DNA from: a virus
Lineage: Duplodnaviria; Heunggongvirae; Uroviricota; Caudoviricetes
Reading direction: 5' to 3' (one strand)
DNA: 64,000 nucleotides
IMG/VR virus record: IMGVR_UViG_3300043466_002831
Location: 57,364-121,363 of that record
Position numbers and translations under genes: made by a program. Position 1 is the stretch's first letter; the number at the start of each line of letters is the position of its first letter. Shown here one piece after another: positions 955-59,649 of the stretch. The notes under the pieces were generated by a model, which saw only the letters and a list, made by a program, of their open reading frames with translations, ran no database searches and was not told the origin of the DNA.

Positions 955-2250
955 ATGAGAATAATAATCACAGAAGAGCAATTCAACCGATTTAATTTAC
1001 AGTTGTCTGAGCAAGGTATGGGCACAATGTTCACACCTCAATATCATGCAATGGAAATGTCTAAAATTGTTAAAATGCCAACTCATGAATTAAATGCTAT
1101 TTTAGGATTGGCAACCGCCTTTATACCTGTTATAGGACCTTTTATTAGTGCTGGAATTGGAGCGTTAGATGCTCTCCAATATTATCAAGAAGGTGATAAT
1201 AAAAGCGCAGCTATTGCCACAGGATTTTCATTACTCCCATTTATAGGTCCTGTAGTATCTAAAATACCAGGAGTTAAGCAATTAGGTGCGAAGGGTATGG
1301 CTGCGTTGGCATCAAAAGTTGGAAAAACCTCCAAATTTACACAAACTGAAGCACAAGTTTTAAAATCAATCAACGCCAATAAATCACTTGTGACGAATGA
1401 ATTAAAGGCGACTAGTAGTATATTAAATAGTTTAAAAGGTAGTGTTAGTCAATTTAAACCAAGCTATGTTCAAAGATTTGGTAAAAGTGCTTATGATGAT
1501 TTATTAAAGAAATTGGTATCAAAAAAAATAACTAAAGAACAGTTTATTGGTACTTTGAAAAAGGGTAAAGTTGCGTCCCCCAAGTTATCTAATTTTGCTA
1601 CAAAATTTGGAGTGAAATTTTCACAAGAAGAGTTACAGAGTATTAAAGCCATGACAAATGGAATTAAAACAGGTAAAACAACCCAAATTGTGTCAATTAA
1701 TACCAAGAATGGTGTAAAACAAGTTAAAATAAATGTTTTTGACCCAAATATGTATGCCAAAACTAGACCTGAATTAAAAAATATTGATGCGTTTGCTAAA
1801 GGTGATGGTATTTTTGTAAATAAAAACATTGTTGGGAAAGCCGATTTAGATGAATTAATAGGACATGAGTTGGCTCATATTAAAGACCCATCAATGGTTA
1901 GTAGTAAATTAAATAAAACATATAATACCAGTAGTGTTAAAAACTATAACTTACACCCATATGAGATAAATGCGGTTACATCGGCAGCACTTCAAACTTT
2001 AACTAACACAACTAAAAGTTGGATGAAGTATTTACCTAAAGAGCAATTAATGGGTTATTTAGATGATATTCTTAGATATACAAAAGGTGAAAAAGTTTTT
2101 GATGCGAATAGCTTAAAAATGATTGGTAAAGATGGATTAGACCAATTAATATTATATTATAAAAATGATAAAAAAACTTACCGTAATGTTTTAACCAAGA
2201 TAGCTAAACAAGCTAACTATCTAAAATCACAAGTTAACATTGCAATGTAA
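955..2250 (+). CDS. N-terminal-motif (NTM) family protein with HExxH motif (putative Zn-metallopeptidase) and a hydrophobic segment
   Basis: N-terminus MRIIITEEQFNRFN matches the recurring family motif. Contains LIGHELAHIKD (HExxH) and a hydrophobic stretch LGLATAFIPVIGPFISAGIGAL. Confidence 0.65.
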   Translation: MRIIITEEQFNRFNLQLSEQGMGTMFTPQYHAMEMSKIVKMPTHELNAILGLATAFIPVIGPFISAGIGALDALQYYQEGDNKSAAIATGFSLLPFIGPVVSKIPGVKQLGAKGMAALASKVGKTSKFTQTEAQVLKSINANKSLVTNELKATSSILNSLKGSVSQFKPSYVQRFGKSAYDDLLKKLVSKKITKEQFIGTLKKGKVASPKLSNFATKFGVKFSQEELQSIKAMTNGIKTGKTTQIVSINTKNGVKQVKINVFDPNMYAKTRPELKNIDAFAKGDGIFVNKNIVGKADLDELIGHELAHIKDPSMVSSKLNKTYNTSSVKNYNLHPYEINAVTSAALQTLTNTTKSWMKYLPKEQLMGYLDDILRYTKGEKVFDANSLKMIGKDGLDQLILYYKNDKKTYRNVLTKIAKQANYLKSQVNIAM

Positions 2251-2263
2251 TAAGTAATTAATA

Positions 2264-2836
2264 ATGAAGATAATAATCACAGAAGAACAATTCAATCGAT
2301 TCAATAGAAGTAGCGGTGCGTTACAGAATGGGATTATTAAATATTTGAATCTTTTATTCTCAGAGGGTGAAAGGACTTTTAGTACTAAAAACAACAATCT
2401 TGGTAGTCTTTCAGAAAATTGGTGTATAGATGGTAAAAATCATTTCATGATAAATTATTATTTTGAAGATGGTAAGTTTAATGTTGGTAAGTTAATTGTG
2501 TCTATGACGATTGTTGACCAAATTAGAAATATATTCAGTATCAAAAAATCATATGCTCTCCATGTTATTGAAGAGTGGTATGAAGACGTAATGGTTCCAA
2601 AATTTGAGGAGTTGGTTGATGAAAAAGGATTAAGTATCGATGAAATTATGATTAGTACAAATATAGATAGTCCTTGTAAACCTAAATTTGTCAGACCTGA
2701 TGATTTAACGGATGATGAAATGATTGATTATATTGTGGCACACACTTTATTTAAAAGACAGGATGTTATACGACAACTTGAAGGTGGTAGAGACCTTGAT
2801 GTGATGTACGCAGATATTCTTTATAGAGACAAATAG
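2264..2836 (+). CDS. NTM family protein
   Basis: N-terminus MKIIITEEQFNRFN is nearly identical to the preceding gene's N-terminus. Confidence 0.7.
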   Translation: MKIIITEEQFNRFNRSSGALQNGIIKYLNLLFSEGERTFSTKNNNLGSLSENWCIDGKNHFMINYYFEDGKFNVGKLIVSMTIVDQIRNIFSIKKSYALHVIEEWYEDVMVPKFEELVDEKGLSIDEIMISTNIDSPCKPKFVRPDDLTDDEMIDYIVAHTLFKRQDVIRQLEGGRDLDVMYADILYRDK

Positions 2837-2839
2837 TAT

Positions 2840-3151
2840 ATGAAATACATTATAACAGAAGAACAATTACGAAATACGATTAAAAAATTCAATAGAGAAC
2901 ATATTGAACGAGATAAATTAAGTGTCATTATGGAAGAACTTGTTTTACGTTTTTTTGAAAACAAAATTCCTATTTGTGATGTAGTTGCCACAAAAACATC
3001 TGACTATATTGTTTTAGTATTAACTCCCAAATATATTGGTAATAGTATCGAAACTAGAATCGCCAAATATATTGAAGATTATATTGGTATTAGACCAATG
3101 GTTTTAGTTAATACGTCTCAAGATTGTATGGAAGAAGATACTATAGAATAA
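2840..3151 (+). CDS. NTM family protein (small)
   Basis: N-terminus MKYIITEEQLRNTIKKFN. Confidence 0.7.
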   Translation: MKYIITEEQLRNTIKKFNREHIERDKLSVIMEELVLRFFENKIPICDVVATKTSDYIVLVLTPKYIGNSIETRIAKYIEDYIGIRPMVLVNTSQDCMEEDTIE

Positions 3152-3152
3152 A

Positions 3153-3341: not shown

Positions 3342-3368
3342 TTTATTGTTTCTTGTTATTTAATTTTC

Positions 3369-3376: not shown

Positions 3377-3380
3377 TATT

Positions 3381-7209: not shown

Positions 7210-8421
7210 ATGAGATTAGATGAAAACATACTTAGAATAAAGGAAGTTATGGGATTGATTACCGAGGCGGAAGTAAATCCTCAAGGTGTTGAAATTAATC
7301 TTGGTAACTTATTTAAATCAGGTAAATATATTATAACACCTGAAATTGGTACTAAAATTAATTCTGCTATTAATCAAATCAAAGCATTTATTACTAAAAA
7401 TCCAGGTAAACCTGTTGTAGTTACAATAGAATCATCGGAATCAAAAGTACCTAATTATGACAGAGAAAAATTCCCATCAACTGGGAATAATGAGGTTGAT
7501 TTTACTAAAGAGAAAAAAATGGTGGTTGGAGCACTATCAAAAATTAGGGCAAATAATTTATCAACATATTTAAAACCTAAATTACCTAAAAGTGCTCAAA
7601 TAGTTATCAATGACAAGGGTGCTCAAGGACCTACTTGGGATGGCGTGAATGCGGATGCTGAAAAATATACTCAAAAACAATATGTTAAATTATTTGCAAA
7701 ACTTAACACTACCCAACCAACAACAAGTACGCCTAAAACAGACCCTAAATTTTGTACACAAGAAATAGAAAGTTCTGGTGGAAAGGGAAACCCAAGTAAT
7801 GGTTTTATCTCCGAGGTAAAAACTATTGAACTAGGTGAAGGTGAAAATACATTTAAATTCTTTATTGATTCTATAAGTGTACCTGATATTATGATTGTTG
7901 AATATAATGGGGTTACACAAACTACGGGATTTGTTGGTAGTGATACTGAATTATACCAAACTTTATTAGGGACTATAATTTATAACCGTTACGATAATTG
8001 GGGTAACCCAAGACCGTGGTGGTTCAAAAACCTTAAATTAGTTGGAGTACAACCATATCACGCTGACCAAGTTTTAAAAAAATATTCAGGTGATTGGACA
8101 CCTGATGATTTATCACACATCTATCCAAAGGCTCCTAAATTAAGTACTACTTTTTTTCAAACAATGACTAAAAATCCTGACGAATATGTTGGGAATTTTA
8201 AAGTATATAAATTAGGCTACGATTCAATTAGAACGATGGCGGCGGGAGTTGATGCTTGGAACGGTCCATCAAGTATAACTATTAATAAAGTTGCTGGTGT
8301 GAATACTGCCAAAGTTACTATCATTGGATTGATAGGTCAAACAAAATGGAAATTATATGTTAAGTGTGGTAACATTGCACCAATGTTAACAACTGCGGGT
8401 GGTTCAGGTGGGGATGCTTAA
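7210..8421 (+). CDS. hypothetical protein with variant NTM-like N-terminus
   Basis: MRLDENILRIKEVMGLITE resembles the MNLREDIERIQEVMGIE variant of the family motif. Confidence 0.55.
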   Translation: MRLDENILRIKEVMGLITEAEVNPQGVEINLGNLFKSGKYIITPEIGTKINSAINQIKAFITKNPGKPVVVTIESSESKVPNYDREKFPSTGNNEVDFTKEKKMVVGALSKIRANNLSTYLKPKLPKSAQIVINDKGAQGPTWDGVNADAEKYTQKQYVKLFAKLNTTQPTTSTPKTDPKFCTQEIESSGGKGNPSNGFISEVKTIELGEGENTFKFFIDSISVPDIMIVEYNGVTQTTGFVGSDTELYQTLLGTIIYNRYDNWGNPRPWWFKNLKLVGVQPYHADQVLKKYSGDWTPDDLSHIYPKAPKLSTTFFQTMTKNPDEYVGNFKVYKLGYDSIRTMAAGVDAWNGPSSITINKVAGVNTAKVTIIGLIGQTKWKLYVKCGNIAPMLTTAGGSGGDA

Positions 8422-10805: not shown

Positions 10806-11120
10806 ATGAACTTACGAGAAGACATAGAAAGAATTCAAGAGGTAATGGGTATTGAGGTATCAAATCTATTCAAACGAAAAATGCATATTGTTGACCGACT
10901 AATATATACTTTGATTGAAGATTCAATGTATCCATGTGATTATGATAATGAGGAAGAGTTTTATGAGGGAGTTATTTATGAACTCAGTTGGTTAGTTAAA
11001 AACAAGGACTTTGGTTTAGATGATGTTGAATGGTTAGATATCTATGATTACATAACAAATTTCAAAGAAGAAGAACTCAAAGGTTATTATAAAGAACGTT
11101 GTGGTGACAAAGATGTTTAA
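10806..11120 (+). CDS. NTM family protein (MNLxE variant)
   Basis: Real start is the ATG at 10806 (MNLREDIERIQEVMG). The track start 10770 lies inside the upstream terminator hairpin. Conserved GTATTTATTAAT motif immediately upstream. Confidence 0.65.
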   Translation: MNLREDIERIQEVMGIEVSNLFKRKMHIVDRLIYTLIEDSMYPCDYDNEEEFYEGVIYELSWLVKNKDFGLDDVEWLDIYDYITNFKEEELKGYYKERCGDKDV

Positions 11121-11444: not shown

Positions 11445-13205
11445 ATGAAGATTATTGTCACCAAGGAACAGCATAATATTATTAAGGAGGCGTTAGGTGT
11501 TCCTGATTCAATTTTAGATGCTGCGGAAGAACTATATGATGTATTTGCGGATAACTTAAAGAGCATTACAGATAAAGAATCATCTTATGAATTTAGAGAT
11601 GATATTGATGTGGTATTGGGTGACAAGAAGAAGATTACAATTGATGGATATACTTTAGAGGTTGAAATTGAAGAAGTTGATGATTTCCACGAAAGAGTTA
11701 CTCCTGATAGAAACGTAACAATATCTTCAATGGGTATGTCACAACAATTTAGATTTAACCGTGACACCATGATGAAAGAAATACAACCATCAACAAGTGC
11801 TGGATTCAATATTGTTTATTATGCTTCACCTGAATGGGAACCTCAAGATTTGTATGATGAATTCATTAGAGAGAAAAGTAAAAGTATTGGTTCTTTAGCC
11901 CATGAATTAAAACACAAATACGATAAACAAGCCAAACGAATTGATTTAATTGGTAAAGACGCTGAATATAGTGCGGTAGATAAACTACCATCGTTTCACG
12001 TCCCTGAGGTTGATGACCAATTTGTTCGTTATTTGTATTTTACAGATGGAACTGAGGATTTAGTTAGAACAACAGAGGTTGCTTCCAACATGAGAAGTGA
12101 AGGTATTAGTAAATCTCAATTTAGAGAATTCTTACAAAACAATAAAACCTTTAAAACTTTGGTCGATATTAAAAACTTTACCTTTGAAAAATTAATCAAA
12201 GGGATTTACAATAATCTTGACACAGTTGATAAAATCTTTGATGCTATTGATGTGGATACTGATGGAATGTCTGATAAAGATAAGGTGGAAAAGTTCTTGA
12301 AAATAATTTATGTCAATCTTTCCAATATGAAATTGCGTACATTTGAAGATTATGTTGGTAGTAGTGAAAATATGTTCGCACAATTTCTTAGAGCGATGGG
12401 ACAACTAGGTATTGCCGATGATGAAGAAGAGATTAAACTTAACAAGATTAAAACAAAATTTCAAAATCACGTTTTAAAATATAGAGATAATCCAATACAA
12501 TTCTTTAAGAGTGAAATAGACCGATTCCATAGAGTTTCAGACCAAGCAATGAAAAGAATAAGTAAACTATATGCGATGGCAAAAGACGATACAGAAATGA
12601 CAGAATCGATTATTGATTGGGAACTTCACAGACAACTGATGGAGAAGAAACACGGGAAACGACCAATAGAAACTAATTTTAAATTTATTAGTGAAGATAG
12701 AGAATCCAAAATTGAAAACATCAGACAATTAATAAAAGACCCTAACCAATTTGAAACAATGGTTAAAGTAATGGGTATTGAAAATATAATTAAAATTGCT
12801 TATGATGGCGACATAATTAAGTTCAGTGAAGACACAACTACTCCACTTGCTTATATGTCTACAGACAGAATGAATTTATATATACATAAGGCGTTAGTTG
12901 ATGAACTTGGACTAAAAGACATAGGGTGGGCTGGTCGTAATGAAAAAGAATTAGGTAAATTCGCATATGGTTCCAAGAATGGTCTGAGATACGCATTCAA
13001 CGCTACATTAGCTCCAACAAGACTTCCAAGACTTCATAACCAAAACTATTATAGAGTTGTTGGAACAAGTGGTGATTCAGGATTTGGTTATAGTTTTATT
13101 AATAAAAAAAACATATTAGGTGTAAGATATAGGCAACAAATCTTCAAACAGATAATTGACAAATACGATTTATCAAAATACATGAATGTGAAAACTTTTT
13201 ATTAA
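11445..13205 (+). CDS. NTM family protein, large (586 aa)
   Basis: N-terminus MKIIVTKEQHNIIKEALG. Terminator follows. Confidence 0.65.
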   Translation: MKIIVTKEQHNIIKEALGVPDSILDAAEELYDVFADNLKSITDKESSYEFRDDIDVVLGDKKKITIDGYTLEVEIEEVDDFHERVTPDRNVTISSMGMSQQFRFNRDTMMKEIQPSTSAGFNIVYYASPEWEPQDLYDEFIREKSKSIGSLAHELKHKYDKQAKRIDLIGKDAEYSAVDKLPSFHVPEVDDQFVRYLYFTDGTEDLVRTTEVASNMRSEGISKSQFREFLQNNKTFKTLVDIKNFTFEKLIKGIYNNLDTVDKIFDAIDVDTDGMSDKDKVEKFLKIIYVNLSNMKLRTFEDYVGSSENMFAQFLRAMGQLGIADDEEEIKLNKIKTKFQNHVLKYRDNPIQFFKSEIDRFHRVSDQAMKRISKLYAMAKDDTEMTESIIDWELHRQLMEKKHGKRPIETNFKFISEDRESKIENIRQLIKDPNQFETMVKVMGIENIIKIAYDGDIIKFSEDTTTPLAYMSTDRMNLYIHKALVDELGLKDIGWAGRNEKELGKFAYGSKNGLRYAFNATLAPTRLPRLHNQNYYRVVGTSGDSGFGYSFINKKNILGVRYRQQIFKQIIDKYDLSKYMNVKTFY

Positions 13206-13537: not shown

Positions 13538-14038
13538 CTAAGATAACTCGTTGTGATATGGAAATGCATATTGAAAAGATTCTGTATAATCTTCATTATT
13601 TGCCATTCTCTGAACCATATCAAAATCAGACATAGCTCTGTTGTAGAAATCTTTACCTCGTGATACAATCTCAGACCTCAAGTCACCCCAACTATCATCA
13701 CCAACATTATAAATGTCATCACCCCATTTTTTCTCAAGAGCTTCTATTTTTGAATAGAAGCATGTTTTAAGTGCGAGAAGTACATCTGAATCTATACCAC
13801 AATAACGATTTAGATTCAAGAATATATTTCTTATCCTTTGATAATCATTATCTGATGGATAGTCCACAAAATCAATAACTTGCCAAAAGAATTTGTCCAT
13901 ATGAACTGCGTACCATTTTTCGTCTCTAATTTTAACATTATCATCAGGTAGTTTGAAATCCTTAAACAACGGAAGACAGGTAATAAAGTCTTCGGTCTCT
14001 TCTTTTAATACTTTTCTGATGGATTCTTTTAGGTTCAT
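13538..14038 (-). CDS. NTM family protein (MNLKESIR variant)
   Basis: N-terminus MNLKESIRKVLKEE on the minus strand. Confidence 0.65.
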   Translation of the reverse strand: MNLKESIRKVLKEETEDFITCLPLFKDFKLPDDNVKIRDEKWYAVHMDKFFWQVIDFVDYPSDNDYQRIRNIFLNLNRYCGIDSDVLLALKTCFYSKIEALEKKWGDDIYNVGDDSWGDLRSEIVSRGKDFYNRAMSDFDMVQRMANNEDYTESFQYAFPYHNELS

Positions 14039-18135: not shown

Positions 18136-18447
18136 ATGAATCTAAAAGAATCCATAAGAAGAATAATAAGAGAAGAATTTAAATCGAAATTCTTTATTAG
18201 AAGAGTTGATTTAGATTTAGCTAAAGACATGCTTCCAATTAATGCAGAACAAGTATACCATGAAACTGAAAGTTATGAGCAATTCAAATATGAATTAACT
18301 TTAAGGGTTGTGGAAGCAATTATGTGGAATAAGTATGAACTTGGTTGGGAAGATTTACCTGAACAAGAAGAAATAGAATACGTGACTAAACTTTCGGATG
18401 CATTCGAGAAAACAATTAAACGGTTATATCATATTTATCATAATTAA
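18136..18447 (+). CDS. NTM family protein (MNLKESIR variant)
   Basis: MNLKESIRRIIREEFKSK; the AAGTATTTATTAATATG cassette lies upstream. Confidence 0.65.
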   Translation: MNLKESIRRIIREEFKSKFFIRRVDLDLAKDMLPINAEQVYHETESYEQFKYELTLRVVEAIMWNKYELGWEDLPEQEEIEYVTKLSDAFEKTIKRLYHIYHN

Positions 18448-18639: not shown

Positions 18640-19077
18640 TTAATAAGGGTATGAAACAGTACGAGCATTCGTATTGAATACTCCATTAATAATATTCAAT
18701 AAAGGTTTACTCCAAATATTGATATCACCGAATAAACTTTCAAGTCTTTCATACATTTCCTCAGATAATACGATGAGGTCAAACTCCTCGTCACTTACGT
18801 CAGGACTATTTTGGCAAGGTTCAGGTAACTCATCTTTAAGTTCCTGAGGATAATCACCATTATCATCGTAATACTGTCTATTAACCAATTTAAATAGGTA
18901 GTCATCGTATTCCCTATCAGGTAGAACAAACCCTATGGCATAAGGGTCACAACATACACCCATACCACAATTAAAATCAGCCCAATTATAATAACAATTA
19001 TCAAATCCCTCAAAAGAAATATCAATGTAGTTGTGAATAACTTTAGTAAGTTTAGATTCTGAGATAGTTACTTTCAT
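18640..19077 (-). CDS. NTM-like family protein
   Basis: MKVTISESKLTKVIHNYIDISF on the minus strand. Confidence 0.55.
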   Translation of the reverse strand: MKVTISESKLTKVIHNYIDISFEGFDNCYYNWADFNCGMGVCCDPYAIGFVLPDREYDDYLFKLVNRQYYDDNGDYPQELKDELPEPCQNSPDVSDEEFDLIVLSEEMYERLESLFGDINIWSKPLLNIINGVFNTNARTVSYPY

Positions 19078-21554: not shown

Positions 21555-21797
21555 ATGAAGTATGTACTGACAGAAATAGATGACAGGATTAGAGTGACCA
21601 TCTCTAATGACGATAAAGAAATAGGTCTCCTTTATTTCGAGAAGGCTAAACTCAACTTTACAAATAAACCATTAAGCATGGGGTCATGGGCATGTGTCGA
21701 TGCCAAGATAGAAGATGATAGTATATTCCATGAAGGGTTCACCCCCAAACAAATGGTGGGGGAATGTCAGGACCTGATTAAAGCGGCGGGGTATTAA
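21555..21797 (+). CDS. hypothetical small protein (uncertain)
   Basis: ORF downstream of the structured non-coding region; MKYVLTEIDD is the more likely start than the track start 21495. Confidence 0.3.
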   Translation: MKYVLTEIDDRIRVTISNDDKEIGLLYFEKAKLNFTNKPLSMGSWACVDAKIEDDSIFHEGFTPKQMVGECQDLIKAAGY

Positions 21798-25299: not shown

Positions 25300-25617
25300 A
25301 TGAAGTACCTCATCACCGAATCCAGGTTGGAAAACTTAATATACAAGTATCTTGAATCGAAAAGTCTTTATTTGTTAAGCACGGTTAATTCACGTCATTT
25401 TTTTCCTTCCCGTAAATCTATTGATGATGGTGAGTACCCGATTATATCCTACGATAATAAGAACAAAGATTGTTTTGTTAGTTCCACTTTTGTTGAGGAT
25501 GTATGTTCTTTGTTTTCCATTGACCCCGAATATTCTTTGAAGGTTATATCTGAATGGGTTGGAAATAAATTGGATGTTGAAATTGAATCATATAATTCCG
25601 ACTTTGGTGCCGACTAA
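25300..25617 (+). CDS. NTM family protein (array member 1)
   Basis: MKYLITESRLENLIYKYLES. Confidence 0.7.
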   Translation: MKYLITESRLENLIYKYLESKSLYLLSTVNSRHFFPSRKSIDDGEYPIISYDNKNKDCFVSSTFVEDVCSLFSIDPEYSLKVISEWVGNKLDVEIESYNSDFGAD

Positions 25618-25632: not shown

Positions 25633-25872
25633 ATGAAATATATTATTACCGAATCACAACATCAAAACATTATTCATGATTATTTGGAAAAGTATATTGA
25701 TTCGGATTGCGTTAGAATTAAAAAAACCCCTAACTATATTAGTGTTGATGTTGAAAGTCCAAGTTATTTTGAAGAACAGGGATTTGATAAATCTGATGTT
25801 GTCAGAATAAAAAACTTTCTGAAAAAGAACTCTTTTCAGTATGCGTTTGGAGAATACATTAAAAAAATATGA
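25633..25872 (+). CDS. NTM family protein (array member 2)
   Basis: MKYIITESQHQNIIHDYLEKY. Confidence 0.7.
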   Translation: MKYIITESQHQNIIHDYLEKYIDSDCVRIKKTPNYISVDVESPSYFEEQGFDKSDVVRIKNFLKKNSFQYAFGEYIKKI

Positions 25873-26534
25873 AGTATATCATCACCGAATCTCAGCGTCA
25901 AACATTATTGATGGAAACCGTATCTCCTCCGATTCGTAGAAGGTTGAGTTTTGAGAATATGAAAGATGAGATGGATTCCATTATTGAACATACTTTGAAT
26001 CCCTGTGATTTTGATAATGCTGGAACTTTTATTGAGGATGCCTGTGATATGTTTGTTTATATCTATCTTGAAGATTTGCAAGCATCATCTAAAGATAAGG
26101 ATTCTCTTTATTATTATGCCGTTGACGTATTTGGAAAATATCTTGTGGAAGTTTATAATGAGAGATGTGGTGGCAAAGATGGTTTAAACGAATCGGTAGG
26201 TGATTTAAGTAGGAAGGCCAAAATTTTAAAAAGATATACAGAAGATATGTTATCTGAGAAACCATGGTTTAATGGTTTGGATATTACCATATCTAACTAT
26301 CAAACATCACATAAAGACGAAAATGGTCGTCGTTATTTAACCACAATCCCCATCTTTACATTTAAGATTAATACAAGTGGTATTCCTAAAAGTATTTCAT
26401 ATAATGATGTTATTAAACTTGAAAATGAGGTTTCGGACATTGTTGTTCCGTTATTTACTTCTTTGTTCCCTTATGAAGATGAAGATGACAACTTGGATGC
26501 GGTTTGGGATACAAAATTTGATTTTCACTTATGA
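25869..26534 (+). CDS. NTM family protein (array member 3)
   Basis: MKYIITESQRQTLLMETVS; ATGA overlap with the upstream gene. Confidence 0.7.
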   Translation: MKYIITESQRQTLLMETVSPPIRRRLSFENMKDEMDSIIEHTLNPCDFDNAGTFIEDACDMFVYIYLEDLQASSKDKDSLYYYAVDVFGKYLVEVYNERCGGKDGLNESVGDLSRKAKILKRYTEDMLSEKPWFNGLDITISNYQTSHKDENGRRYLTTIPIFTFKINTSGIPKSISYNDVIKLENEVSDIVVPLFTSLFPYEDEDDNLDAVWDTKFDFHL

Positions 26535-26860
26535 AATATATAATTACAGAATCAAAATTGGACATGCTCATGACAAACTACATGGACAATTTTCTTGCCA
26601 GTAAAAAAGTATCCGATGGAGGTGATGTCCTTATTATCTATGATAATTTGGGTGAAGATTATGAATATGAGGAAGAAGTTTCTATTGATTATACGTATGA
26701 TGATTCTGAGATGTCCATTAGAATGGACTTAATTAACATGTTTACGTCTATGTTTTCTCGTGATATAGAACAAGCTAAAGAATTCATTAAGAATTGGTTT
26801 GAAAATAAATTTAACCTTGAGGTCGGGTATGTGGATACTTTCAAATCACCTAATTTTTAG
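26531..26860 (+). CDS. NTM family protein (array member 4)
   Basis: MKYIITESKLDMLMTNYMDNF; ATGA overlap. Confidence 0.7.
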   Translation: MKYIITESKLDMLMTNYMDNFLASKKVSDGGDVLIIYDNLGEDYEYEEEVSIDYTYDDSEMSIRMDLINMFTSMFSRDIEQAKEFIKNWFENKFNLEVGYVDTFKSPNF

Positions 26861-26868: not shown

Positions 26869-27288
26869 ATGAAATATATTATAACAGAATCTAAATTGAA
26901 TTCCGCCATCTATGAATTTATAGACCAAGCGTTTGCATCAAAAGATGGGAATACGGAAATTAATACATTACCCGCATTAGATGAAAACGGTGAGGAGATT
27001 AATAATGCTTATGATTTTGTGAATGATGACTATTATAGTGACTCTGGTTCTGATTATCTTTTTGCTTGGACTGGAGAAAAGTATTACGAATCACTAACCC
27101 CTAGTTATATAACAGGAAGTGAATTCGAAAGACTTGCATCACAATCACCCCTTGTTGAAATTTATGACAAAGATATCTTGAATAAACTTAATGGTTATTT
27201 CGGAGATGCGTGGAAGCCAGTATTTAAACAATGGTTTAAAGATAAAACGGGAATGGATTATAAAACAATATATGAAGTACCTAATTAG
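26869..27288 (+). CDS. NTM family protein (array member 5)
   Basis: MKYIITESKLNSAIYEFIDQAF; C-terminal GYFGDAWKPVFKQWFKDKTG. Confidence 0.7.
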   Translation: MKYIITESKLNSAIYEFIDQAFASKDGNTEINTLPALDENGEEINNAYDFVNDDYYSDSGSDYLFAWTGEKYYESLTPSYITGSEFERLASQSPLVEIYDKDILNKLNGYFGDAWKPVFKQWFKDKTGMDYKTIYEVPN

Positions 27289-27577
27289 TGAATCAAAAAT
27301 AGAATCTGTTATCCGAAAATATTTGGATGATAATTATTATCCTGACTATGGTTGGTTAGAACCTGAACAGTATAAAGAAGAATATGAAAAATGGGATGAA
27401 GTTTATTTTGACATTGATGACCATATTCGATATAAGTATGTTTCAGGAAAATTAACTGTTGGTGAATCCCCTGACCTTGATGGGTATTTTGGTGATGTGT
27501 GGAGACCTGTATTTCTTTCATGGTTTGAAGACCATACGGGATTAAAAGTTTATGAATATAAAGTACTTGACGAATGA
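27272..27577 (+). CDS. NTM family protein (array member 6)
   Basis: MKYLISESKIESVIRKYLDD from the internal ATG at 27272; C-terminal GYFGDVWRPVFLSWFEDHTG is paralogous to member 5. Confidence 0.65.
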   Translation: MKYLISESKIESVIRKYLDDNYYPDYGWLEPEQYKEEYEKWDEVYFDIDDHIRYKYVSGKLTVGESPDLDGYFGDVWRPVFLSWFEDHTGLKVYEYKVLDE

Positions 27578-27867
27578 AATATCTAATTAAAGAATCACAA
27601 ATTAAAAGGTTTATATGGGATTATTTTAATTCAGAGGATTATGATATTTCCGAAGATGATAATGATATTTTTCTTCTTGATGATTATGGTAATTTTGATT
27701 GGAATTATACTTTTGATAATAGACGATTGTTGGTTGCAAATGACATAATTGTTTCAGTTGAAAGTATGTTTAGTATTTCATATGACGATGCATTGGAATA
27801 TGCTGGTCAGTGGTTTGAAGAAAAGTATGGTTATATTGTTGAGGAAATTCTTAATTGGGATTTGTAA
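27574..27867 (+). CDS. NTM family protein (array member 7)
   Basis: MKYLIKESQIKRFIWDYFNSEDY; ATGA overlap. Confidence 0.7.
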   Translation: MKYLIKESQIKRFIWDYFNSEDYDISEDDNDIFLLDDYGNFDWNYTFDNRRLLVANDIIVSVESMFSISYDDALEYAGQWFEEKYGYIVEEILNWDL

Positions 27868-34370: not shown

Positions 34371-35408
34371 ATGAAGTATATTATCACAGAATCACAATAT
34401 AAAATATTGATTGGGGAGGATGACCATGTGGAACCATCAAAAACTGCAATAAAAAATATCTGTGATAGTAAAAAGTTTTGTAGTGCTCAAGGTAAAATTA
34501 CTTTTGGACAACTAAAAGAATTGGTTAAAGCAGCTTCCAAAACTCGTTTGTATAAACATATGGGTGAAGGTGGATTTAAAGCAACAATTAGATTAATTCC
34601 ATTCTTTTTACCGCAATTGATGATTCCTGGTATTGTTGCAGGAGCTGCAAGAGCAATCAATAAGATATTAAAACCAGGTCTTACTGAGACCGAAAGTTAT
34701 AAAACATTTTGGGGTAAATCCATATTAAGAGCGTTTAAAATTGCTGAAGGCGATATTGACCTTGAAGACCCATTATCCAAAATATTTTTTATTTCAGATG
34801 GTTTGATGACCATGATGGATGATAAATATAAAGTTAAATTCGCTCGTTATGTTGCAGATTTGGCGGATGAGAAACCCGATGATGAGGAGGTTCCTGAATA
34901 TTTTGTTGAGAATGAATTAAGAAAATGGATTAATGATAAATTTTTATTGGACCCACCAATTCCATCAAAAACATTTAATAGAAAGTTATTACCAAAAGAT
35001 ATTGATAATACTGACGAAACACTAACTGAACAAAAGTTGAGTAAAAAAGAACTATTCCAAGACATGGTAAATGAAAAGTTGGAATATATTAAAAAACGTT
35101 GTGTCGATGCTGATGATGTAACTTTCCCAAATGACATTTCATTTAGTACTTGTGACACTGTTGATTTGGTTGATAGTATAACCGTTGCCGAACTTAATGT
35201 TATGTCAAGTGCAAGAACTGATATGTCAGGAGAATTATATAATGTAACACCTAGTATTTACATTAAACTAATTATTAATTTTTCATCTGCAAAAAAAATA
35301 TTTGATTTTGATGATTTGGTTTATGATATAAAACATATGTTAAGAAAATCAACAGGCGGATTAATGGTTGTATTTGATTATGATATTAACAACACATTTA
35401 ACGATTAA
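34371..35408 (+). CDS. NTM family protein
   Basis: MKYIITESQYKILIGEDD; the AAGTATTTATTAATATG cassette lies upstream. Confidence 0.7.
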   Translation: MKYIITESQYKILIGEDDHVEPSKTAIKNICDSKKFCSAQGKITFGQLKELVKAASKTRLYKHMGEGGFKATIRLIPFFLPQLMIPGIVAGAARAINKILKPGLTETESYKTFWGKSILRAFKIAEGDIDLEDPLSKIFFISDGLMTMMDDKYKVKFARYVADLADEKPDDEEVPEYFVENELRKWINDKFLLDPPIPSKTFNRKLLPKDIDNTDETLTEQKLSKKELFQDMVNEKLEYIKKRCVDADDVTFPNDISFSTCDTVDLVDSITVAELNVMSSARTDMSGELYNVTPSIYIKLIINFSSAKKIFDFDDLVYDIKHMLRKSTGGLMVVFDYDINNTFND

Positions 35409-35432: not shown

Positions 35433-35786
35433 ATGAAACATATATTAAACGATTTATCAAACGAAGAAAAAAATAGTATTCGTGAACAACATACTGGAGG
35501 AATGAAGGTTATGACCGAAAGTTTCTCAAGATTGTTAAACGCCAAACTTGGTGATGCAAAACCATTAGTTAATGAAGCTGAGGAAGATGATGACTCAGGT
35601 GTGGTTGTTGATTCAACCAAAATTGAATCTGAAGACATGAAGTGTTTTGTTGACATTAGTGCTGAAGAAGCAAAAAAAGTTGGTTTGAATCATGGTGGAA
35701 AATACAAAGTAAAGAAAAAAGGTTGTCGTACCAAAGTTAAATACAAAGGTCCAAAACAAAAATATTACAATAACAATGGATTTTAA
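35433..35786 (+). CDS. hypothetical protein
   Basis: 117-aa ORF with a Lys-rich C-terminus. Confidence 0.45.
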   Translation: MKHILNDLSNEEKNSIREQHTGGMKVMTESFSRLLNAKLGDAKPLVNEAEEDDDSGVVVDSTKIESEDMKCFVDISAEEAKKVGLNHGGKYKVKKKGCRTKVKYKGPKQKYYNNNGF

Positions 35787-35803: not shown

Positions 35804-36754
35804 ATGAAAAAATTAGTAAGATTAACTGAATCAGATTTAGTTAGAATCATTGAAAAAGTAATTTCCGAACAAGATACTGTTGGAGGTAATTTCCAACAAG
35901 GCGTACAATCGGGTCAACAAGCGGGTCAACAAGCAAGACAGGCGGTTAATAAAGTTGCTGGAGATGTTGCTCAAGGGGCTAAAAAAGTTGGGACTGCGGC
36001 GGTACAAGCTGGAGTTGCAACATTACAAGGAGCAAAACAAGTTGCAATCACTATTGGTAAAGTTACATTTTATGCGGTTATAACTGCAGGTGTTGTGGTG
36101 TTTTTGATTGGTAAAGGAATTTATAAAGTTGGTGCTGCCGTTGGTAATGCAATTATTAAATTTTTAGCTGCGACAGGTAAGGCAACCGTATCAGCAGCAA
36201 CCGCAGTTGGTCAAAAAGCCCTTGGAGGTTTACAGGCGGCAGGGATTGCAATTGGTAAAGGAGCTCAATTTGTGGCACAACAATTAGGTCAAATGAAAGA
36301 CTCTACAGTTTCTTTTGTTAAATGGATGATTAACCAATTTAAACAATTTGGTACTGCTGCTTGGGCAAAGATTTTGGTTGCTGCAAGTCAAGTTAAAGAA
36401 TGGGGTTCTGCTCTTGCAGGATTTCTAAAACAAAGTTGGAATACCATTGCAAGTAAAGTTGGTGTTGCTTGGGACCAAGCGGCCAATTGGGCATCAGGTA
36501 AATTAAATCAAATCAAACAGGGTGTACAAACCGCAGCATCAGCAGTTAAATCAGGTGTGAAAAATGCGGCATCCGCAGTTAAGTCAGGAGTTCAAAACGT
36601 CGCAAACAGTGCGGCAAATGCAGCTGGAAATGTTTGGGGTGGCGTTAAAGGATTCTTTACTGAAATGTTTGAAAGATACCTTTCATTTGAAGGAACAAAT
36701 ATATTAGAAATAATCTCTGAAGCGGCAGCTTATAACGGTAAATCAATTTTATAA
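35804..36754 (+). CDS. NTM family protein (RLTE variant) with Ala/Gly/Gln-rich helical repeats and one TM segment
   Basis: MKKLVRLTESDLVRIIEKVISEQ; repeated AAVKSGVKNAASAVKSGVQNV; hydrophobic VTFYAVITAGVVVFLIG. Confidence 0.65.
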   Translation: MKKLVRLTESDLVRIIEKVISEQDTVGGNFQQGVQSGQQAGQQARQAVNKVAGDVAQGAKKVGTAAVQAGVATLQGAKQVAITIGKVTFYAVITAGVVVFLIGKGIYKVGAAVGNAIIKFLAATGKATVSAATAVGQKALGGLQAAGIAIGKGAQFVAQQLGQMKDSTVSFVKWMINQFKQFGTAAWAKILVAASQVKEWGSALAGFLKQSWNTIASKVGVAWDQAANWASGKLNQIKQGVQTAASAVKSGVKNAASAVKSGVQNVANSAANAAGNVWGGVKGFFTEMFERYLSFEGTNILEIISEAAAYNGKSIL

Positions 36755-36755: not shown

Positions 36756-37193
36756 ATGAAACGAGTGGTAAAATTAAATGAGAGTGATATCGCTCGAATT
36801 GTAAATAAAGTTATTAGCGAACAAGAAGATAGAACAGGTGATTTATACGCATCAATCAATAGTTTAATTGATGATGAGTATAATGATGTTAATTATGAAG
36901 ATGTTGCAAATGTTCTTGAAAATATTTTAAGAGGTATTAAGGCACAAGCTCACAGAAACAAAAAAGGTATGAAACCAATTTCAAAAGATGATATTTTGAA
37001 AAACTGGGGTTTAAATGAACAGGAAGAGGAATCAAGACCTTTCCTTAAAAGAATTATTGCGAAGTTAAAGGGCGTATCAGAAAAACAAATTAGATATAAT
37101 ATGGAACATGATTTACCTTGGGATTGGAATGGTTCAAAAGAAGGTTACTATGAAAAAATGGAACCAAGAAAAAGACACACAGGTTCAAACTAA
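36756..37193 (+). CDS. NTM family protein (RLTE variant)
   Basis: MKRVVKLNESDIARIVNKVISEQ. Confidence 0.65.
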   Translation: MKRVVKLNESDIARIVNKVISEQEDRTGDLYASINSLIDDEYNDVNYEDVANVLENILRGIKAQAHRNKKGMKPISKDDILKNWGLNEQEEESRPFLKRIIAKLKGVSEKQIRYNMEHDLPWDWNGSKEGYYEKMEPRKRHTGSN

Positions 37194-39719: not shown

Positions 39720-39971
39720 ATGAAAAGAACAATTAAATTACGTGAATCCGAAATGGTGTCTCTTATTAAACAAGTGTTGAGTGAGGAGTATAACCCTGAA
39801 AAACTTTACAGTCGTAATTATGTTGTTTTTAAATTAAAACAAGGTCCAAGGGAACTAAAAAGATTCATTAAAGATTTACCACATATTGATTGTGTTGATG
39901 GTAGTGGTAATCCACATACTTGCACAAAAGTACCTGAAGTAGTTCACGTTTTTTTACAAGGGAGGTACTAA
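39720..39971 (+). CDS. NTM family protein (RLTE variant, small)
   Basis: MKRTIKLRESEMVSLIKQVLSEE. Confidence 0.6.
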   Translation: MKRTIKLRESEMVSLIKQVLSEEYNPEKLYSRNYVVFKLKQGPRELKRFIKDLPHIDCVDGSGNPHTCTKVPEVVHVFLQGRY

Positions 39972-42387: not shown

Positions 42388-43065
42388 ATGGCAAGAGTAG
42401 TAAGACTTACGGAACAAGAATTAACTGGATTACTTCAGAACATTATAAATATGGCTTTTAATCCAAGTAAGTCGTCATCAACAAGTAGTACAAGCTCTAC
42501 GGATTCAGGTGACGATATTGAGGGTACTCCAAAAGACACTTCAATAGGTAAGGTATCTGCCAAAGGACAAGCGTTATTAAATAATCCAATTTTTAAGAAA
42601 AAATTAAAAGAAATATCAAACGCAATTCATATTGATGAAAACTCAATCATTAAATTAATGAAACATGAATCAGGTCTTAATCCTGAAATTAAAAATAGTA
42701 TTGGGTGTGTTGGGTTGATTCAGTTTTGTCCTGGTGGAGGAATGCCAAAAACAATTAATGGTAAGTCATACACTTTGGATGAATTAAGATACGACTTGGA
42801 AGCTCAGATGGATGCGATTAAAGAATTTTGGACTAAAGGATATAACAATGGTAAAATAAAACAACCTGCAGACTTGTATCTTTATAATTTCTTCCCTGTT
42901 GCTGCAGGAAAACCTGATGATTTTGTATTACAAGCTAAAGGGTTATCGGCATCAACTGTGGCTAAGGCTAATCCAGGATTTAATAAAAAATTGGGTAAAC
43001 CTGCTTCATCACCATTAACTGTTGGTGATATGAAACAATATTACCGACAAACAGGGATGGCATAA
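42388..43065 (+). CDS. lytic transglycosylase (SLT domain) with NTM-family N-terminus
   Basis: MARVVRLTEQELTGLLQNIINMA, then an STSSTSSTDS linker, then HESGLNPEIKNSIGCVGLIQF (SLT catalytic-region pattern ES...N...S..GA.GLMQ). Confidence 0.6.
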   Translation: MARVVRLTEQELTGLLQNIINMAFNPSKSSSTSSTSSTDSGDDIEGTPKDTSIGKVSAKGQALLNNPIFKKKLKEISNAIHIDENSIIKLMKHESGLNPEIKNSIGCVGLIQFCPGGGMPKTINGKSYTLDELRYDLEAQMDAIKEFWTKGYNNGKIKQPADLYLYNFFPVAAGKPDDFVLQAKGLSASTVAKANPGFNKKLGKPASSPLTVGDMKQYYRQTGMA

Positions 43066-43555: not shown

Positions 43556-44056
43556 ATGGGAAAAAGATTTCAACTTACAGAATCAGATAAAGACCAAATT
43601 AAAAAACTTTATCTTATAGAACAGTCCGAAACAAAAGAAGATGACCGTAAATTCTGCCATGGCGGAAACGTAAAGTCTCTTGAAGAAATTGTTGGGGGTG
43701 ACGAAGCCGAAGATTATATTGAAGGTGTTCAGATTAGACCAAATGGTGTTAACGGTTTGGTGGATAAACTTGAGTTATTAAAAACTCTTAGATTACACCC
43801 AAAAGTTTCTGATGGAGGTGAACACTTGGCAAGTGAGATTATGAATCACTTAAAAGGTTTTAAACCTTACAACTATTTTGATGAAACAAAAAAAGAGTGT
43901 GGTTCTGCAATGGATAAGATTATCGAACTTTACAAAGAAAACGAACACGGAGAAGAACTTGTTAAAGACATCGAAAAAGTATATTCAATGAATCACGTGT
44001 CAGCAAGAGCTAAAGAATTTTTAAAACACGGAATGGGAATGATTAAAGGTCATTAA
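43556..44056 (+). CDS. NTM-like family protein
   Basis: MGKRFQLTESDKDQIKKLYLIEQSE from the ATG at 43556, with ATATTTATTAAT upstream. A terminator that overlaps the next track start follows. Confidence 0.55.
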   Translation: MGKRFQLTESDKDQIKKLYLIEQSETKEDDRKFCHGGNVKSLEEIVGGDEAEDYIEGVQIRPNGVNGLVDKLELLKTLRLHPKVSDGGEHLASEIMNHLKGFKPYNYFDETKKECGSAMDKIIELYKENEHGEELVKDIEKVYSMNHVSARAKEFLKHGMGMIKGH

Positions 44057-45731: not shown

Positions 45732-46025
45732 ATGAGAATCACAGAAGCTGAGAAAAAAGAAATCATGTCCAAGTACGATGGGAATACTTCTGATGAATTA
45801 TTGACTCATTTAAAAAGACATTTTCCCGTTATTGAAATTAAATTAGATTGGATGGAAAAACCACTCAAACAAATTTCAATTGATTACAAGACATATATGT
45901 TGGAACACAACAAAAAATACTTGGTCGGAAAATTGTTTAATTATCTTGAAAGTGATTGGGTTCATTTAGGAGAACCAACATTAAGAAGAACAATTAAGAA
46001 ATATTTGGACGGGATTACATTATAA
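45732..46025 (+). CDS. hypothetical protein
   Basis: 97-aa ORF; terminator follows. Confidence 0.5.
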   Translation: MRITEAEKKEIMSKYDGNTSDELLTHLKRHFPVIEIKLDWMEKPLKQISIDYKTYMLEHNKKYLVGKLFNYLESDWVHLGEPTLRRTIKKYLDGITL

Positions 46026-49916: not shown

Positions 49917-51113
49917 ATGAGGGATTTAATCAGACGAATTCTTAAGGAACAAGAAGAAAATTACGACACACTTGAAATGATTAGAGATTATTCAGGTAGT
50001 AATGACTTTCTTAATGATTTAAGGAGGAAATTAAAAATTAAGGGTAGTTTAACGGATAAACAAATTCAAGCGGCAATTAAAACTTTCAAGAGAGAACATT
50101 GGTCAGGTACAATAGCCTCTAAAATTGGGTTATATGAGTACAAACATCTAAAAAGTTTAGTAATAAAATTAGGTATTGAAACTTACAATAGAATGATTAG
50201 AAGTGAAAAGAAATTTTTTTTCACGCAAACTATTGATAGTGAAGATAAAACTGTTGTAGGTAAACCAAGTTCAGAATGGATTGATAGAAATGAGAACGAT
50301 TTAGATTTTTTTAAAACTCATATTGTTGATTCAGGTAAAAGATTCAAATTTCCTGATAGAGAAAAGTCAGTTACTATAACTGATGAAATTTATTACTTAT
50401 TTTATTTATTGGAAATAAATGATTTTTCAGGGTTTATTGAAAAGGGTGAATGGTCAATATTAAATAGACTTGGAAGTAACTGGTCAAATTGGGCAAAAAT
50501 GATTGGAATTAGAGAAAGGGATGGATATTTGGGATATGGTGACGACACATCAAAAATTGAAAAGTATTTTGAACAACAACCGATTACTGATATAATTGAC
50601 ACGAATAATTTATCAAGTAGAACTATTAATAGATTCCCAACAATGAGTTTTGCCGAATTTGATTTGGCTGAAGCTTTTCACGAAGTTGATGAAAATTTAA
50701 AAAGTACTCAATTAGAAAAAATTAAAAACAGAATTAGGTCCACAACTGAAAGTGGTGAATCGGTTGAAAGAGAATTTATTTCTTGGTTAGAAGAAAACGG
50801 AGTCACTGAAATTAGAAATTTTTCATCATTTGGTAATGTTGTTGATATTACATTTTCTGTTGATTTGATGGCGAAATTAAATAATAAATGGGTGCCAATT
50901 CAAGTAAAAAGTACTGAAAGTTCTGCTGCAACTTCTCAAATACATAAATTTGATATTGGTGGTATTGCGGTATATCCCGCTCCGAAAAAAATGCAGTGTG
51001 GTAATTGGATTTATATTAAATCGAATAGAGGTTTAAAAAATCAAGGTTCATTTGACGAAGACTTTTTAAATTTTCAATGTGAAAGAAACGACTACGAAGA
51101 CATTGAAGATTAA
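49917..51113 (+). CDS. NTM-like (MRDLIRRILKEQ) protein; C-terminal region possibly nuclease-like (speculative)
   Basis: ATG at 49917 preceded by GGTATTTAATATAT. N-terminus resembles the MNLKESIRRIIREE variant. Confidence 0.5.
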   Translation: MRDLIRRILKEQEENYDTLEMIRDYSGSNDFLNDLRRKLKIKGSLTDKQIQAAIKTFKREHWSGTIASKIGLYEYKHLKSLVIKLGIETYNRMIRSEKKFFFTQTIDSEDKTVVGKPSSEWIDRNENDLDFFKTHIVDSGKRFKFPDREKSVTITDEIYYLFYLLEINDFSGFIEKGEWSILNRLGSNWSNWAKMIGIRERDGYLGYGDDTSKIEKYFEQQPITDIIDTNNLSSRTINRFPTMSFAEFDLAEAFHEVDENLKSTQLEKIKNRIRSTTESGESVEREFISWLEENGVTEIRNFSSFGNVVDITFSVDLMAKLNNKWVPIQVKSTESSAATSQIHKFDIGGIAVYPAPKKMQCGNWIYIKSNRGLKNQGSFDEDFLNFQCERNDYEDIED

Positions 51114-54532: not shown

Positions 54533-55156
54533 ATGAATTTAAAAAAATTAATCAGAGAATCTTTAGAACGACACCTTGACCAAACTTTAATATTAAAAGA
54601 GAATGTTGAAATTTCAGAAGCTCTACAATATCACATTGATAATGATTTATCATTAACTGATAATGTATTCAGAGTTTATTCTGAAAGTTATTTTGATTTA
54701 GTTAATGAGGTTAGAGGATTATATAACGAAGGTGTGATTGACTTAAATGAAGAAGACAAACTCATGGTTGAGTCTGATTTAGGTAAAAGGGTTAAGATTG
54801 GTAATGAAATTGTATATCTTGATGCCCCTTATATCTATGAGACGGAAACTGAAGAAGATATTTTAGCCGAAGCCAAACACAGAGGAAAAAATGTGAATAT
54901 CGGAAAACCATTTAGAACACCAGGTGGACCCAAAAAATTTGCAGTATATGTTAAAAGTAAAAATGGTGGTGTTAAAAAAGTTACTTTTGGTGACCCAGGT
55001 TTACGAGTTAAAAATGCAAATAAAAAAGCTGCAAAATCTTTTAGAGCAAGACATAATTGTAAAGATAAAAAAGATAGAACAACCGCAGGATATTGGTCTT
55101 GTAATGTTGGTCGTTATGCAAAACAATTAGGTTTATCATCTTCAAATTCTTGGTAA
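54533..55156 (+). CDS. NTM-like (MNLKKLIRESLERHL) protein with basic C-terminus
   Basis: N-terminus resembles the MNLKESIR variant. Confidence 0.5.
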   Translation: MNLKKLIRESLERHLDQTLILKENVEISEALQYHIDNDLSLTDNVFRVYSESYFDLVNEVRGLYNEGVIDLNEEDKLMVESDLGKRVKIGNEIVYLDAPYIYETETEEDILAEAKHRGKNVNIGKPFRTPGGPKKFAVYVKSKNGGVKKVTFGDPGLRVKNANKKAAKSFRARHNCKDKKDRTTAGYWSCNVGRYAKQLGLSSSNSW

Positions 55157-57292: not shown

Positions 57293-58296
57293 TGAACATA
57301 ATTGATTTCCCTATAGAACGTCTTAATGAATTTTTAAGTAACCATTCATTTGTGGTTACAAAGCCGTTGGGCGAAAACATAGAAATTGGAGGTAACGTAA
57401 CAGTCAAGGTTAAATTAACGGGAATTAAACCAATGATTTCAGTTGGTGATTGGAAAGATTTTATTGAATATACAATAATAATAGAGGATATTGATGATTC
57501 TTATCTTAAAGGAATTTTTGGTCATTTATTTGCCGCAGTTAAAACACAAGATTATGCTATTGCGAATACCGATACAACATTTTACCTGATTACATCACAA
57601 GTTAATGGATTATTACGTAATTTTCTAAGATATTTTAACATCGACAACTATGTGACTTGTACTAGAATTATTGACAAAGCAACAAACATTGACCCAAAAT
57701 ATATGACCGAAAGTATAATCACTGAAGATAAATATGATAATGCCATTAGACAAGTGGTTAGGGATATTATGTCAGTTTTTAAATATCAAAAAGAAGGTGA
57801 TTATCAATTACCTGAGGATATTTCAACTGATGAAAATGACATGGTTTATGATTTTCCTGAATTAGGTTCTAGTTTTACCGTTAATTTAATAATGAGTTTA
57901 AATGATGACATAGACACTATAGACGTTGATGCTGAATACTATGGAGACGATGATTCAATAGACGTTAGAATAGAGTCAAATCCAAATTTAGACCGAGAAA
58001 CTTTGCAAGAACTTTATTATGAATTAAATGAATTAGTTGCTCATGAATTACAACATTTAGTTCAAAATGATGAAGGATATAAGTTTCCAAAAAGAGAAAC
58101 AAAAAAATCTTTGAAGTATTATACTCAACCTCATGAAATAGAAGCTCAAATTACTGGTTTTAAACGAAGAGCAAAAAAAGAACAAAAACCTTATGAGGAT
58201 GTAGTTAGAAGTTGGTTTAAACGAAATCAGTTAAAACACAATTTAAATCCAAAACAAACTGAAATTGTGATAAATAAATTACTTGGGTCTGAATAA
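57292..58296 (+). CDS. HExxH-motif protein (putative metallopeptidase)
   Basis: VAHELQHLVQNDEGY. Confidence 0.45.
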   Translation: MNIIDFPIERLNEFLSNHSFVVTKPLGENIEIGGNVTVKVKLTGIKPMISVGDWKDFIEYTIIIEDIDDSYLKGIFGHLFAAVKTQDYAIANTDTTFYLITSQVNGLLRNFLRYFNIDNYVTCTRIIDKATNIDPKYMTESIITEDKYDNAIRQVVRDIMSVFKYQKEGDYQLPEDISTDENDMVYDFPELGSSFTVNLIMSLNDDIDTIDVDAEYYGDDDSIDVRIESNPNLDRETLQELYYELNELVAHELQHLVQNDEGYKFPKRETKKSLKYYTQPHEIEAQITGFKRRAKKEQKPYEDVVRSWFKRNQLKHNLNPKQTEIVINKLLGSE

Positions 58297-59036
58297 TGTT
58301 TGTTACTGCTAAAGTTGCCAAAAAATTTTTAATGCATGAACCATTCTTTGTTGAGGGTTTTGAATATCAATTTATATCGGTAGAACCCCATGAAGATTGG
58401 GCGATAGATATTGTGGTTAATGTTGTTTTACCAAAAAAAGGTCAATCATTTGTCACAGAAAAATTTAGTTATGATATCCACTACATTATTAAAAGGTTTG
58501 GAGATTACTTTGGTTCTGGAATATCGTATAATGAAAAAATATTAGTTGATGGTAAACCAGTACCTGAAAAAGGTGTTTATATTAATGAAGAAGACCAAGA
58601 TGAAATAATAAATTCATTGAATGGTAACATGTCAAATTTCTCAATTATGAATATGAACACCAATTATGACACTTATAGAGTTAGAGGTAGTTTAACTTGG
58701 GAAAAACCAAACAAAAGATTTTATCAAGTTAATGAAGAGATTGATTTCTATTTTTATTATAACGTATCCGATGTTGTTGTGAATAATGGTGAATTAAATG
58801 TTAACCCAACTAAAATTAATGAATTCGCATCGACACTTAATGATAGATTACAAGATAATGACCAATTTAGGGACAAAATAGTCGATAATATCTATATGGT
58901 TTTAGAACCTAGTACTAAGATAGAAAATCTTGAAGTTTATTTTAATGCGAATTATTTCCTTAAAAGAATTAATGGTGAAGAGTACAATCCTACATCTCCT
59001 GAAATGGGATTTAAATGGAATATGTTTATCGAGTAA
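58296..59036 (+). CDS. hypothetical protein
   Basis: 246-aa ORF with ATGA-type coupling to the upstream gene. Confidence 0.5.
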   Translation: MFVTAKVAKKFLMHEPFFVEGFEYQFISVEPHEDWAIDIVVNVVLPKKGQSFVTEKFSYDIHYIIKRFGDYFGSGISYNEKILVDGKPVPEKGVYINEEDQDEIINSLNGNMSNFSIMNMNTNYDTYRVRGSLTWEKPNKRFYQVNEEIDFYFYYNVSDVVVNNGELNVNPTKINEFASTLNDRLQDNDQFRDKIVDNIYMVLEPSTKIENLEVYFNANYFLKRINGEEYNPTSPEMGFKWNMFIE

Positions 59037-59649
59037 ATTTCTTGACTAATTTCTTGATTGTGTCAGTTAAAACTGCCTGACTAACAATTACAACACCTGA
59101 AGCGATTAATCTTTTTGCAATTGTTTTTGCAATTGTTGTGGCGTCACCACCATTCATTACACCATTTAAAATATCCGTAATAATTGGAATTAAAAATGAG
59201 TATGCAACCAAATCCAAACTTGAACTTATTGTTACGTTAGCTGAAGATAAGAATTTTGAAAATGAATTTTTTAAATTTTTAGATTTGATTAGAACTTCTT
59301 TAAACGTGTCTTCAAGACCCTGTTCTTTAATTTTTTTATAAATTAGTTTTAATGCTCTTGAATTATCATAAAAAACTGAACATGCAATTCCAACCAATAT
59401 TAATGTTTGTTCTGTCTCATTTAATTCAAATCTACCTGTCCTAATGAATTTGTCTAATGGTAATACAAAACCACCAACTGACGCACCCCAAGTCAAAAGT
59501 AATTTAAGGTTTAACCCATAAATTGACTTAGCTCTATCAACAAGATTAGAAGTATATGAATACATCTCTTTCATGTAATCACTCATCTTAGATTGGTCTT
59601 GTTCCTGAAGTATTAATCTCAATTGAGATTCGTTAATTAAAAAATCCAT
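59026..59649 (-). CDS. NTM-like membrane protein
   Basis: MDFLINESQLRLILQEQDQ on the minus strand; several hydrophobic segments. Confidence 0.5.
   Translation of the reverse strand: MDFLINESQLRLILQEQDQSKMSDYMKEMYSYTSNLVDRAKSIYGLNLKLLLTWGASVGGFVLPLDKFIRTGRFELNETEQTLILVGIACSVFYDNSRALKLIYKKIKEQGLEDTFKEVLIKSKNLKNSFSKFLSSANVTISSSLDLVAYSFLIPIITDILNGVMNGGDATTIAKTIAKRLIASGVVIVSQAVLTDTIKKLVKKFTR

Follow-up and report, generated by a model that had tools for sequence, protein, structure and literature searches.

The internal proteins of T-even phages are diverse defence proteins with only the capsid targeting sequence (CTS) in common (PMC3012670). An N-terminal CTS is also carried by the DarB protein of P1 (PMC9024508), and giant phages have AxE and SxE sites together with identical N-termini on diverged ejection-protein paralogues (PMC5694885). 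The 64-kb stretch of DNA analysed here (the window) belongs to an uncultured jumbo or giant phage whose host is a member of the Bacteroidota, and like the T4 CTS system it encodes a short N-terminal peptide, here called the tag, that is the one part common to accessory proteins otherwise varied and quick to evolve (PMC3012670, PMC5694885, PMC9024508). At its core lies [LI]-x-E, which would suit a protease cutting after Glu, and among the tagged bodies are candidates for a role in entry or against the host. T4 gp21 cleaves at L/I-x-E sites, which the core of the tag matches. Unlike the T4 system, the tag does not resemble the T4 CTS in sequence, occurs in several discrete coexisting classes that are conserved past the putative cut site, and recurs internally at domain junctions, its helix being modelled within the fold in small members. 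The scale is also different: the tag is found on ∼24% of the genes of the 64-kb island and on 161 body families in ∼1 Mb, with 6,135 clusters for one tag variant.

Three other systems bear comparison. The encapsulation peptides of bacterial microcompartments and the cargo-loading peptides of encapsulins are short amphipathic helices that dock diverse enzymes to a protein shell, with a linker of low conservation often lying between helix and cargo. These peptides keep mainly a hydrophobic pattern, whereas the tag keeps residue identities and also has an invariant Glu and, at its N-terminus, a conserved extended stretch; we know of no shell genes in this clade beyond the presumed capsid. As in T4-type promoter-early stem-loop cassettes, small accessory genes lie in plastic regions, each of them behind a terminator-like hairpin and compact promoter, but those cassettes are mobile DNA elements outside the coding sequence (in hyperplastic regions), whereas the conserved unit here is a peptide whose synonymous sites are saturated. 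Phage tail spike and fibre anchor domains likewise attach to a common partner through a conserved N-terminus with a variable C-terminus; they are folded, span ∼100 or more residues and belong to large structural proteins, whereas the tag has ∼20 residues and heads mostly small acidic proteins of ∼100–140 aa.

Tagged genes in the window and in the clade

The initial annotation had listed at least 27 ORFs that begin with a common motif. The family is real: the motif is present at 27 of 27 starts, that is ∼24% of the ∼111 genes in the window. Translation of the 24 plus-strand starts agrees in every case with the earlier description. The three minus-strand genes carry the motif as well, but the positions given for them (13538, 18640 and 59026) are the low ends of the ORFs and the true starts lie at 14038, 19077 and 59649. 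A regular expression for variant A yielded 14 six-frame matches in the window, each directly behind an initiator Met, and the back-translated pattern ATGAARTAYMTHATHANNGARTC occurred nine times compared with none in 100 dinucleotide-preserving shuffles. HMMs built from the members picked up 15 (A), 6 (B), and 4 (C) ORFs with scores of 24–41 bits, and the best non-member among the window ORFs reached no more than 12 bits.

Variant A opens a series of plus-strand genes: 955..2250 (MRIIITEEQFNRFN; 431 aa, TM-like segment), 2264..2836 (MKIIITEEQFNRFN; 190 aa), 2840..3151 (MKYIITEEQL; 103 aa), 11445..13205 (MKIIVTKEQH; 586 aa), 25300..25617 (MKYLITESRLENLIYKYL; 105 aa), 25633..25872 (MKYIITESQH; 79 aa), 25869..26534 (MKYIITESQR; 221 aa), 26531..26860 (MKYIITESKL; 109 aa), 26869..27288 (MKYIITESKL; 139 aa), 27272..27577 (MKYLISESKI; 101 aa), 27574..27867 (MKYLIKESQI; 97 aa), and 34371..35408 (MKYIITESQYKILI; 345 aa). 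Two further A genes, 18640..19077 (MKVTISESKL; 145 aa) and 59026..59649 (MDFLINESQLRLIL; 207 aa, TM-like segment), are on the minus strand. The HExxH protein noted earlier was recovered as 955, with HELAH at residue 304 and a weak M48 match; an HExxH motif is also present in 11445 (HELKH at residue 153).

Variant B genes, all on the plus strand, are 32550..33296 (MKKIIRLTEADLTRIVKRVISEQ; 248 aa), 35804..36754 (MKKLVRLTESDLVRIIEKVISEQ), 36756..37193 (MKRVVKLNESDIARIVNKVISEQ; 145 aa), 39720..39971 (MKRTIKLRESEMVSLIKQVLSEE; 83 aa), and 42388..43065 (MARVVRLTEQELTGLLQNII); the tag of 43556..44056 (plus strand; MGKRFQLTESDKDQIKKLYLIEQ; 166 aa) is of type B/D. Class C divides into C1, at 13538..14038 (minus strand; MNLKESIRKVLKEE; 166 aa) and 18136..18447 (plus strand; MNLKESIRRIIREE; 103 aa), and C2, at 7210..8421 (plus strand; MRLDENILRIKEVMG; 403 aa) and 10806..11120 (plus strand; MNLREDIERIQEVMG; 104 aa), the latter with a terminator hairpin and a GTATTTATTAAT box immediately upstream. 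Two listed genes are weak members, 49917..51113 (plus strand; MRDLIRRILKEQEE; 398 aa, weak Hjc-like match) and 54533..55156 (plus strand; MNLKKLIRESLERHL; 207 aa): none of the three HMMs matches them, but similar N-termini such as MRDLIKKIIREE are found repeatedly in the clade. Three borderline members lie beyond the original list, all on the plus strand, namely the A-like 21555..21797 (MKYVLTEIDD; 80 aa) and the D-type 35433..35786 (MKHILNDLSNEEKNSIREQH; MKHILNDLSNEEKNSIREQHTGG) and 45732..46025 (MRITEAEKKEIMSKY; 97 aa), which has a TATTTATT box 3 nt upstream. In P0067 and P0068, the N-terminus seen in 35433 is fused with module Y of 36756.

Sequence searches for the motif in other Bacteroidota phages located it across one uncultured jumbo-phage clade, whose related contigs reach ∼320 kb. 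Exact MKYIITES occurs in 112 IMG/VR stretches, and variant B alone matches 6,135 metagenomic protein clusters. The tag was not found in cultured phages, Pfam, PHROGs or the literature, nor in cellular genomes except for one match on a 4-kb MAG contig. It is thus specific to viruses, restricted to one clade, and previously undescribed.

Architecture and exchange of the tag

The tag consists of ∼20 residues forming a short extended stretch, an almost invariant [Leu/Ile]-x-Glu, and a 14-residue amphipathic helix; [LI]-x-E followed by the helix is the core common to classes A, B, and C. The core Glu, with Ile or Leu two residues earlier, is conserved in 98% (A), 89% (B), and 92% (C) of members. 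Conservation in variant A is highest at K2 (95%), I5 (96%), T6 (89%), and E7 (98%), and only the hydrophobic pattern is kept past residue 9. In variant B the polar face (D11, R14, K17, R18, and E22) keeps its residue identity across unrelated bodies. Conservation reaches ∼22 residues. Being short, the [LI]-x-E core could be no more than a helix N-cap.

Structures of members were predicted, as the initial annotation had recommended. In the AF2 model of 25300 (pLDDT 92.7), tag residues 7–20 form helix α1 (pLDDT ∼96) of a compact α/β fold, and residues 1–6 are non-regular and less confident. The location of the best-conserved variant A residues in this non-regular segment suggests recognition in trans. 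The helix is integral to the modelled domain. The fold has 10 structural paralogues in BFVD at just 15–30% identity, so that bodies unrelated by BLAST can share a fold. With the helix of the tag modelled as an intrinsic α1 in small members, part of the family is a conventional fold family. The model of 36756 has the tag extended at residues 1–8 and helical at 9–22, with no confident overall fold (pLDDT 50).

The bodies fall into 161 BLAST families in ∼1 Mb, the largest cluster having 124 members, and are mostly small (∼100–140 aa), acidic, and without annotation. The earlier description of the C-termini as unrelated holds for the larger proteins; for small ones it was overstated, as some of these are weakly similar in sequence and have the same predicted fold. 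Annotated bodies comprise cell-wall proteins (SLT, lysozyme, glucosaminidase, YkuD with LysM, and PG_binding_1), baseplate-hub and tape-measure lysin regions, HNH and ParB-like nucleases, and ECF sigma. The tag therefore does head clearly different proteins, from sigma factor and SLT to lysozyme-type enzymes, YkuD/LysM proteins and nucleases; both the ECF sigma at 29097 and the SLT at 42388 were confirmed.

Homologous bodies carry different tag classes, which co-occur and swap (A, B, and C). The body of A-tagged 25633 is homologous to B-tagged proteins in related locus L018, that of B-tagged 39720 to A-tagged proteins (family 20), and A-tagged 25869 has the body motifs IRRRL and PCDF in common with C-tagged 10806. 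The body of 36756 is a mosaic of modules X and Y. The motif, first described at the N-terminus, also occurs internally. The gene at 29097..30020 (plus strand) encodes a two-unit fusion, an A tag with a ∼120-aa domain and then an internal B tag with ECF sigma (r2, residues 151–211; r4, residues 248–298). The internal tag (29433..29486, plus strand; residues 113–130; 20.4 bits, i-Evalue 5e-7) has the full sequence KITESDLTRIIERIIQEQ, which extends to residue 131 and directly precedes the sigma domains, and the first domain also stands alone as 128-aa proteins in L007 and L045. A second, A-like tag, GKYIITPE, is present at residues 38–45 of 7210 (nt 7321–7344). Internal tags stand before each unit in multi-unit proteins. 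The tag is thus not purely an N-terminal signal, because copies recur at domain junctions, and this recurrence together with the class swaps on homologous bodies shows that it behaves as an exchangeable module.

Disordered linkers part the tag from the body in 42388, where a Ser/Thr-rich linker leads to the SLT domain (residues 76–115), and in 35804, where a G/Q-rich linker and a hydrophobic segment precede a body matching tape-measure-type PHROGs. Given the intervening linkers, the tag cannot belong to the fold of those enzymes. With 161 body families and enzymes attached in this manner, the tagged proteins are not one conventional domain family.

These structural data bear on a somewhat unlikely alternative, in which the tag has no sorting role and would be the opening structural element, an N-terminal stretch with α1, that is conserved best in a hyper-diversified superfamily of small phage domains. 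The larger members would, with the same modest probability, be such units fused to enzymes, the helix nucleating or capping the fold or mediating self-association. The confident α1 inside the compact domain of 25300, its 10 paralogues, the 124-member body cluster, the tag ahead of each unit (29097 being two fused tagged units), and the purely hydrophobic pattern of variant A past residue 9 all speak for such a superfamily. It accounts poorly for tags that run straight into disordered linkers and then unrelated enzymes (42388 and 35804), for the strongest variant A conservation in non-regular residues 1–6, for a variant B polar face that stays constant across unrelated bodies, for tag classes that swap on homologous bodies, and for B-tagged 36756, which lacks a confident fold.

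A candidate docking handle and its possible partners

The tag probably acts as some trans-acting docking or sorting handle. More tentatively, and by analogy with the T4 CTS, it may be a cargo-loading tag for the capsid interior. The clade places this portable ∼20-residue module ahead of hundreds of different accessory bodies. We propose that one phage-encoded partner would read it as a common handle, and that this partner would be the virion. Tagged proteins, from small acidic ones to cell-wall enzymes, nucleases, and a sigma factor, would bind the core of the assembling head, a head protease may trim them after the invariant Glu, and the cargo would be ejected along with the DNA. The annotated bodies would be useful on entry, which counts for virion cargo. 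Also in its favour are the selection on the peptide, the disordered linkers, the exchangeability of the module, the conserved Glu, the separate and untagged endolysin of the phage, the avoidance of the host-type promoter by tag genes, the small acidic bodies, and the restriction of the tag to viruses. Counting against it, conservation runs well past the putative cleavage site, most in variant B; a single receptor is no obvious explanation for several discrete tag classes in one genome; and the tag helix of 25300 is confidently modelled as integral α1, whereas the T4 CTS is removed. Virion packaging of dozens to hundreds of protein species would be, to our knowledge, unprecedented. Neither head genes nor a prohead protease turned up in the window, its 10-kb flanks, or ∼2.5 Mb of related loci; the search for a prohead-protease-like gene, suggested earlier, yielded a ClpP homologue as the sole nearby protease.

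This homologue brings up a handle for a hub other than the virion, which we regard as unlikely. The tag might, for example, be a degron or adaptor site through which a Clp machine, built from phage ClpP and an unfoldase of the host, turns over tagged proteins at set times; other conceivable hubs are a chaperone, RNA polymerase, and a compartment induced by the phage. The protein is a true, highly conserved ClpP homologue present in at least 595 IMG/VR stretches. Its gene lies ∼8.5–9 kb past the right end of the window and adjoins carbamoyltransferases, not head genes, with a host-type promoter in front. Conserved tag-like genes adjoin it, and an Hsp70-like ORF was identified by eye in related locus L026. 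The start of the tag (Met, a basic residue, and three hydrophobic residues) loosely resembles one N-terminal ClpX recognition signal class, which is consistent with a Clp handle, but the internal junction copies argue against a signal requiring a free N-terminus. Moreover, nothing evident explains why one in four genes of the island should be marked for degradation. No direct link joins ClpP to the tag, and strict tags are rare near the ClpP gene (0.13 per 10 kb).

Still less probable is an export or injection signal for Sec-less proteins, which would, for example, let cell-wall enzymes reach the periplasm without a holin. The peptidoglycan-acting tagged bodies (SLT, lysozyme, glucosaminidase, YkuD with LysM, and PG_binding_1) indeed lack a signal peptide, and three window members have a TM-like segment behind the tag, but such a segment is missing from 96% of tagged proteins and the tag itself has no hydrophobic h-region. 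The secreted proteins of the phage use ordinary Sec signal peptides and T9SS C-terminal domains and are untagged, the tagged sigma factor and nucleases are cytoplasmic, and no candidate transporter was seen.

Codons and upstream DNA

Purifying selection acts on the peptide, selection at this level being what the initial annotation had concluded, because synonymous sites are saturated and Ser is encoded from both codon families. Among window pairs, identical residues have differing codons in 48% (A) and 47% (B) of cases, compared with 49% and 53% expected, so that codon choice at identical tag residues is as variable as chance sampling of the background usage would make it; Ser8 is encoded by both TCN and AGY. 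The same saturation and the two Ser codon families exclude a DNA or RNA element as the conserved unit, and a recent duplication as well. Local duplication of a 5′ segment with a conserved promoter is also contradicted by the clade-wide spread (the 112 stretches and 6,135 clusters) and the use of the upstream box by untagged genes. Three A-tag pairs have 90% DNA identity over the first 30 nt; 2264, which is 90% identical to 955 over this length, is among the few recent tag copies.

A TATTTAT box is present within 40 nt upstream of 55% of tag genes, mostly beginning 11–13 nt before the ATG and often behind a terminator hairpin. It is missing from operonic tag genes such as 26531 and present at untagged genes. 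Mosaic junctions are located right behind the tag. Conservation through expression or recombination, with promoter, leaderless start, and first codons as one cassette or with a translation-optimal N-terminus, is highly improbable and as the sole explanation largely refuted, since the box and hairpin resembling T4 promoter/stem-loop cassettes, the mosaic junctions directly after the tag, the AU-rich Lys, Tyr, and Ile codons of its opening, and the three 90%-identical pairs are outweighed by saturated synonymous sites, Ser crossing codon families, operonic tag genes without the box and untagged genes with it, untagged leaderless genes after TAnnTTTG, internal tags far from any start codon, and conservation to ∼22 residues.

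The host-type TAnnTTTG promoter is avoided by tag genes (3% vs 16%), which are therefore probably not immediate-early, and leaderless genes behind this promoter carry no tag. The TATTTAT box also precedes replication-module genes, which argues against inferring late expression from it.

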